Source: Octopus vulgaris (Eukaryota). Taken from it: 64,000 bases of DNA. The notes below the pieces were generated by a model. It did not search any database. It was not told the DNA's origin and saw nothing but the letters and a program-made list of their open reading frames with translations. A program made the position numbers and the translations under genes. Every line of letters begins with the position of its first letter. The stretch's first letter is position 1. The DNA lies in the NCBI GenBank assembly GCA_951406725.2, contig OX597838.1:40920001-40984000 (forward strand), read 5' to 3'. This document shows, one piece after another, positions 21,676 through 22,139 of the stretch.

Positions 21676-21711
21676 ACGCTGACGAGAGGTCAATACCTCG
21701 AAACTCGAGTC
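21676..21711 (+). ncRNA. Hammerhead 5' cleavage-product fragment
   Basis: 36 nt identical to 4679-4714, ending exactly at the GUC cleavage site. Confidence 0.85.
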
Positions 21712-22139
21712 ATCCCCTGTGATCATAATATCTCAGCAAAAGAGTTTGACAAGCTCAGAAAATATAAAGACCTACTCATTGAAATTGAGAAAATGTGGCA
21801 TCTCAAGGCGGTTACAATACCAGTGATCGTAGGAGCACTAGGAATGATCAAGAAGGGAACCGAAAATTATATGAGAATGATCCCTGGCTTACCATCCCTG
21901 CAAGAAGTGCAAAAGATTGTCTTAACTGGTACATCACACGTATTGAGAAGAGCATTGTCGATGTGAGAACTGTTGCTGCTCATGTATTTTAATTTAAAAA
22001 ATTTAAAAAAAAAAAAAATGAACGAACTATTGAGTTTGGTTTAATGGCCTACCAATGTATACTATGAGTTTCTTTGCCCTAGGAGTCGGGAAGACACTCG
22101 GCAAGAAATGGAAGCAAATTTGAAAGAAGAAAAAAAAAG
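21712..22139 (+). mobile_element. 3' end of an R4/Dong-type LINE (restriction-like endonuclease C-terminus and 3' UTR) in (TAA)n
   Basis: IPCDHNISAKEFDKLRKYKDLLIEIEKMWHLKAVTIPVIVGALG...QKIVLTGTSHVLRRAL*; (TAA)n on both sides, as known for Dong. Confidence 0.85.

Follow-up and report, generated by a model that had tools for sequence, protein, structure and literature searches.

Here, we show that in the genome of Octopus vulgaris the end of a putative retrozyme hammerhead is joined, at its predicted self-cleavage site, to a 5'-truncated R4/Dong-like LINE, both in the same orientation and inside a TAA array. The chimera lies in a stretch of 64,000 nucleotides (assembly GCA_951406725.2, contig OX597838.1, positions 40,920,001 to 40,984,000 of the forward strand), hereafter called the window. 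According to the best reading the LINE reverse transcriptase would have jumped onto the end of a hammerhead-cut retrozyme RNA; our confidence in it stays just short of even, and the cleavage-dependent readings combined are probable, at about two in three. The locus consists of the following consecutive parts:

21429..21675 (+), upstream (TAA)n array, the LINE target, assigned from sequence; start approximate
21676..21711 (+), captured retrozyme piece comprising unit positions 318-353, the 3' end of the unit, up to and including the GUC triplet
21712..21966 (+), LINE sequence coding for the final 84 residues, with stop codon, of an R4/Dong-like protein, where its restriction-like endonuclease domain ends
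21967..22139 (+), LINE 3' UTR and terminal A-tract
22140..22249 (+), downstream (TAA)n array, assigned from sequence

The first-pass annotation had described an identity of 36 nt between 21676-21711 and 4679-4714, and exact extension within the window agrees with it (chance of such an identity ~3e-11); a third copy of the piece lies at 4605-4570 on the minus strand. The piece contains 3 nt of stem I, the core, stem II, GAAA, the palindromic stem III and the GUC triplet. Its identity ends, as annotated, with the C of this triplet at 21711, the predicted cut site of a type I hammerhead, and from 21711/21712 onward follows a LINE 3' end (97.7% identity over 438 columns against a long LINE copy) with the final 84 amino acids of the ORF, the 3' UTR, the A-tract and (TAA)n. 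Because the terminal C is common to retrozyme and LINE (C in 27 of the 29 other LINE copies), the joint is placed at offset 0 or -1. The comparison with LINE copies that had been proposed as a check thus gives an overlap of 1 nt, and substantial microhomology was rejected as an explanation; if one gap is allowed, 4 of 5 bases agree between LINE and retrozyme at the joint. At the other end the A at 21676 is common to the TAA array, which leaves 34 bases that can be assigned to the retrozyme without ambiguity. The 3' strand of stem I is missing (0 of 4 pairs) and therefore the chimera is predicted to be unable to self-cut in cis. Both flanks are (TAA)n, where a target-site duplication is unreadable. 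The same TAA array is bordered, at 21180-21430 on the minus strand, by a fragment of another Penelope-type repeat whose minimal hammerhead is degenerate.

Genome-wide, just one exact retrozyme core runs into the Dong-like LINE, i.e. the chimera is single-copy. A multiplied chimeric family (a new SINE) was considered and rejected since, among the 40 candidates scored out of 729, the window alone spans both parts. The hammerhead is also not the LINE's own 5' part, as long LINE copies carry on as ORF upstream of the joint.

Judged by its sequence, the donor belongs to the animal non-LTR retrozymes of PMC7229834 and of Li et al. 2026 (10.64898/2026.07.22.740005), with which it shares tandem units of ~350 nt, one type I hammerhead in each and Penelope-like insertion. 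In contrast, the available text of these descriptions contains no LINE fusion at the cut site. One insertion in the window carries a pair of inverted copies:

4673..4930 (+), ordinary retrozyme copy that ends in (TA)n; its type I hammerhead (4676-4720) is intact, with the predicted cut after 4714
4397..4678 (-), second retrozyme copy within this insertion, in inverted orientation and with a hammerhead of its own at 4564-4608

Rfam Hammerhead_1 (RF00163) matches both hammerheads over the full model length (4676-4720, plus strand, 30.3 bits, E 1.6e-5; 4564-4608, minus strand, 32.2 bits, E 3.5e-6), and both narrowly miss the gathering score of 34 bits; Rfam and repeat scans of the whole window were swamped by microsatellites. 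The CUGANGA core, GAAA and a NUH triplet are found in type I order, and the intact copies have 6 bp in stem I, 5 bp in stem II and a short palindrome as stem III. All hammerhead stems form in the fold of a retrozyme dimer (-44.9 kcal/mol); the minimum-energy fold of the monomer does not display the hammerhead core. The 33-nt core has 439 exact matches in the 2.8-Gb genome, often spaced 353 nt, and the source of the chimera was thus not necessarily the copy at 4679. Arrays of tandem 353-nt units reach at least 5 cores among the matches listed. At 30 loci the copies sit mostly in (TA)n, their insertion ends are mostly at unit position 174 or 216-222, an inverted 5' copy is frequent and the units are 97-100% alike in most alignments. 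These inverted 5' copies and the two preferred 3' ends appear to fit Penelope-type insertion as described in PMC11167929. Within-array versus between-array identity was uninformative as a rolling-circle test, the values being distorted by indels. In an older relative of the retrozyme (L324) a compensatory change from G-C to A-U in stem II was seen by eye. The window contains a further minimal hammerhead copy at 37133 (+) as well as a 184-nt tandem repeat at 49371-50222 with a related copy near 36104.

These insertion habits bear on the possibility that the chimera did not arise in one event, either because the assembly is wrong or because the 36-nt piece entered on its own, by Penelope-type insertion, precisely at the 5' boundary of a LINE copy already present. 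The joint, known from the assembly, lies in long simple repeats. Of 24 public runs listed, 20 contain part of the stretch, all as contigs; in the four runs compared both elements continue at the joint into their cognate sequence, and none of the 32 contigs listed of ~7,300 bridges it, which is no evidence either way. Both parts match their own families cleanly up to the joint, and a separate insertion would have ended neither at the usual unit positions nor in (TA)n but in TAA. We consider either of these origins highly improbable.

The partner LINE is abundant, with 2,819 exact occurrences of an anchor at its ORF end genome-wide. An 823-aa open stretch of a longer copy carries RVT_1 (E 4.7e-27) and the best PDB relatives of the protein are R2 proteins. 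A zinc knuckle and PD-(D/E)xK endonuclease motifs were read by eye at the C-terminal end of the translation; the 84-aa ORF end in the chimera has no Pfam match. Most 3' ends run into TAA, the target being (TAA)n. With reverse transcriptase, endonuclease motifs and TAA target the element apparently fits R4/Dong as described in the available text of PMC7998251, where a single ORF with reverse transcriptase and restriction-like endonuclease and a (TAA)n target are likewise found. Over 257 nt the LINE part of the chimera does not differ from 6 distinct copies (100% identity), and its insertion is therefore recent; both the LINE and the retrozyme family are, to judge from their copies, young. The 5' region of the longest Dong copy (L152) holds a tandem repeat of ~440 nt at 4.0-5.0 kb upstream of the position of the junction.

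How far the position of the joint exceeds coincidence has to be judged from the breaks found elsewhere. The cDNA might have switched internally to uncut retrozyme RNA or DNA, aided by the gapped likeness at the joint, and its position on the cut site would then be coincidental. The chimera was discovered post hoc in a large scan and a retrozyme insertion lies only 17 kb away from it, both in favour of such a chance breakpoint. Exact cores that are not followed by C number 6 genome-wide, i.e. 4 substitutions, the chimera and locus L063 (G000:C5:104202128), an otherwise normal retrozyme copy with a 14-nt insertion exactly at the cut. This 14-nt piece could have been ligated into a circle or added in a jump, and its position on the cut speaks against coincidence, as does the single contiguous base common to both parts of the chimera. 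Scans for breaks of the retrozyme gave 11 hits between -19 and +37 and 19 hits between -19 and +135, mostly internal deletions. Breaks into other sequence do occur at other offsets (-11, +49, +63 and ~+120-150); at +7 another LINE is inserted and the retrozyme resumes afterwards, and a stray 34-nt retrozyme piece ends at -11. At L070 another LINE is inserted in a retrozyme array, and the locus was thus discarded as a capture. Among the 11 and 19 scan hits, which correspond to ~86 effective positions, no retrozyme-to-Dong join other than the chimera was found; the two possible cut positions make up 0.023 of this space, a figure calculated post hoc.

Run-off at the cut would make retrozyme 5' ends accumulate there; such a peak was looked for and not found. 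Searches between +40 and -13 gave 56 hits (30 tabulated, 26 judged by eye, one search of low sensitivity), of which 12 were left out, 1 as a duplicate and 11 because they were deletions, diverged relatives or the same locus seen twice. The 44 ends left comprise 28 downstream of the cut, 1 at the cut and 15 lying 3-12 nt upstream of it. The ends are somewhat denser in this upstream region, with 15 in 12 positions compared with 28 in 40 downstream, and stalling of the reverse transcriptase in the hammerhead core may be the cause. The Penelope-type reverse transcriptase thus seems to read through the cut site, as it would on circular templates or on multimers that had not been cut.

Two more abundant minimal hammerhead families found in flanks, labelled B and D in the present analysis, served for a prospective test. 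At the cut they gave 38 hits with 3 independent foreign junctions. In the first of these (L288:2510-2635, G000:C26:13841210) 28 nt of hammerhead ending at GUA pass into the ORF end of a different RLE-type LINE with an overlap of 2 nt; the LINE piece (~95 nt, tblastn E 6e-4) lacks the 3' UTR and is 84% identical to the copy in L255, i.e. older. The LINE of L288 and L255 is presumably HERO-like. The second junction is a duplicated pair on one contig (L272/L273, ~1490-1527), a lone 37-nt hammerhead piece that ends at the triplet in unrelated surroundings, and in the third (L274) the hammerhead joins another repeat at the cut. At the control offsets from -7 to -3, 4 foreign junctions were present among 96 hits (10 loci read with flanks, the rest by eye on the 67-68 bases shown), all four with long cognate sequence upstream and none matching the three LINE proteins tried; in a narrower control 0 of 6 were foreign junctions. 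The enrichment at the cut (3 versus 4) is not significant, with a sensitivity-weighted P of ~0.21. Isolated hammerhead pieces below 40 nt account for 2 of the 3 foreign junctions at the cut and for 0 of the 4 in the control; that both short pieces are at the cut has a post hoc P of ~0.05. A search for TAA followed within 30 nt by a family-B hammerhead gave 0 matches. At L324:1500-1930 a family-D hammerhead switches into the older retrozyme relative via 8 nt of shared hammerhead sequence at offset -3, as a chance breakpoint through homology would do. In contrast, both hammerhead joins to a LINE ORF end are at the cut and none was seen elsewhere in the scans run.

There is thus a second case of the same build but, because of the P of ~0.21 in B and D, general enrichment is unsupported. 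Plotting the junction offsets had been proposed earlier, and the outcome is mixed: no other join between retrozyme and LINE 3' end was found at any offset scanned, and the foreign junctions of the larger families are not significantly concentrated at the cut. A coincidental position appears on balance not very likely. The earlier statement that the chimera would show cleavage in the germ line went too far, as there is one event, no significant enrichment in B and D and no peak of retrozyme 5' ends at the cut, the public contigs compared did not display the joint, and jumping and ligation leave the same product; as evidence for germ-line self-cleavage it is suggestive, not proof. A 3' fragment of the HERO-like LINE is found in the window at 37723-38032 on the minus strand, and its 3' UTR contains hammerhead core pieces in unusual order.

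For a template jump the way in which the Dong-like LINE finishes its 5' end is informative. We inspected a non-random sample of 135 anchored alignments (drawn from the first 100 of the 2,819 anchor positions and from the 29 top BLAST hits), of which 18 ran off the available DNA, leaving 117 visible 5' junctions. TAA is joined directly in 86 of them. Direct re-copies of the LINE's 5'-terminal 9-50 nt, some doubled or tripled and with little or no overlap, are present in 10 (one to three re-copies each in L187, L223, L225, L236, L247, L248, L205, L185, L171 and L174). The others are 1 longer re-copy in a repeated region, 4 inversions, 6 short fillers, 2 internal deletions, 2 later insertions, 1 assembly gap, 1 copy continuing in the 5' UTR, 3 unexplained junctions and the chimera. 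Re-copying thus affects ~1/12 of the Dong copies, its joints are near-blunt and the re-copied pieces are of the same size class as the captured 36-nt retrozyme piece. This is the pattern to be expected of end-to-end jumping during first- or second-strand synthesis. Two loci were rejected as further captures, L151 being an insertion of a tandem HERO-like element with the LINE resuming upstream and L242 an insertion with LTR-like ends. At L255:4410-9830 a Dong copy is interrupted by the insertion of two HERO-like copies in tandem, of which one has an open frame of 1175 aa; next to them, in TAA, lies a different R4-like family with a 1134-aa frame.

In the preferred reading, the template jump, tandem 353-nt retrozyme arrays would be transcribed and self-cleave after GUC, probably as dimers, as motif, fold and other animals suggest. 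Target-primed reverse transcription would begin in (TAA)n, as indicated by flanks and family, and the LINE reverse transcriptase would run off a broken LINE RNA after 428 nt. The last base of the cDNA could then pair with the terminal C of the cut RNA, which corresponds to the one-pair jump that R2 enzymes prefer; according to PMC8594491 the R2 reverse transcriptase engages RNA 3' ends with 0-2 base pairs. About 36 nt (34-36) of retrozyme RNA would be copied before the enzyme stopped, and the observed structure has this end joined to the TAA array. The jump is preferred because of the overlaps of 1 and 2 nt and the 5' duplications of the LINE family. Several points stand against it: the chimera is one event that was noticed because of its position, the case in L288 is older and its LINE piece is without 3' UTR, and promiscuous jumping predicts other captures of foreign RNA ends, of which none was found in the other 116 LINE junctions (3 left unexplained). 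Furthermore, the accessible text of PMC8594491 does not mention "phosphate", so that a jump of R2-type reverse transcriptases onto a cyclic-phosphate end is not covered there.

Cleavage would also precede the joint if RNA ligation came first, i.e. if RtcB joined the cyclic-phosphate retrozyme end to a 5'-OH LINE RNA fragment and the LINE machinery inserted the product with 5' truncation. From such end types RtcB makes U6/L1 chimeras, joining cyclic-phosphate U6 to 5'-OH L1 RNA (Moldovan et al. 2019, PMC6789731), and animal retrozyme monomers with 5'-OH and cyclic-phosphate ends are circularised by RtcB in vitro (Cervera and de la Pena 2020, PMC7229834). All foreign ends captured in the present cases are predicted to carry a cyclic phosphate, and the chimera, being without stem I, would not be re-cut. 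The LINE break is at a C-A step, which is labile in RNA. However, an overlap, which ligation does not require, is present in both cases, the 5' duplications of the LINE family are easier to explain by jumping and no chimeric RNA was seen. Taken alone, ligation seems unlikely. The earlier proposal of ligation or jump therefore stands in so far as both routes are precedented (PMC6789731, PMC11371274, PMC8594491, in the parts available) and a second cut-site join exists in L288, but the two routes are indistinguishable.

Chimeras of small RNAs and LINEs are a known class, to which the hammerhead cut end would be a new donor. As in the U6/LINE-1 retrocopies of PMC6789731, a small-RNA 3' end with a cyclic phosphate (here predicted) is fused in sense orientation to a LINE that is 5'-truncated, and the two were inserted together. 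In the chimera, unlike there, this end is predicted to result from self-cleavage of a ribozyme, a second mobile element served as donor, the LINE is of the RLE type, the captured piece is itself 5'-truncated and there is one copy, not many. The donor piece ends at offset 0 or -1 from the predicted cyclic-phosphate end. Independent joins do not recur at this end, with one for the present retrozyme and one in another hammerhead family. In cells, the 5' junctions of insertions made by R2 proteins can contain "extra template", which is nearly always U6 and is ascribed to jumping and/or ligation (Zhang et al. 2024, PMC11371274; Palm et al. 2024, PMC11331408). There an RLE-type protein likewise places foreign RNA at the 5' end of the insertion; as far as the available text describes it, that system was engineered in human cells, whereas the chimera is a natural genomic insertion with a hammerhead product. 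The supplementary lists of extra-template junctions in both papers may bear on it. Breakpoints of LINE-1 chimeras with tRNA halves, 28S, 7SL, Y and 7SK were also read as fossils of RNA cleavage (PMC11838501), but the tRNA halves are mostly antisense and "ribozyme" and "hammerhead" are absent from the accessible text. Literature searches, mainly of open-access papers without their supplements, brought up no description of a LINE fused to the cut end of a hammerhead.

In canonical animal retrozymes in vivo processing was already shown for coral, mussel and axolotl (PMC7229834). In a Penelope-type element of the anole, by contrast, no RNA reads began or ended at the cut site and cutting was unneeded for insertion in vitro, according to the available text of PMC11167929. 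Whether Penelope-type hammerheads cut in cells is thus a partly open question. The significance of the present locus is limited, since it is one dead copy. With confidence somewhat below even, we propose that RLE-type LINEs repeatedly capture cut hammerhead ends from Penelope-type elements. These captures would leave a countable genomic fossil record of self-cleavage in the germ line, including that of minimal hammerheads without detected cutting in cells, and would provide a route for ribozyme parts between retroelement classes. If this is true, joins between cut ends and LINEs would offer a natural case for the question of jump versus ligation left open for R2 proteins, and a test of cleavage from sequence only, pointing to the germ line, across many genomes.
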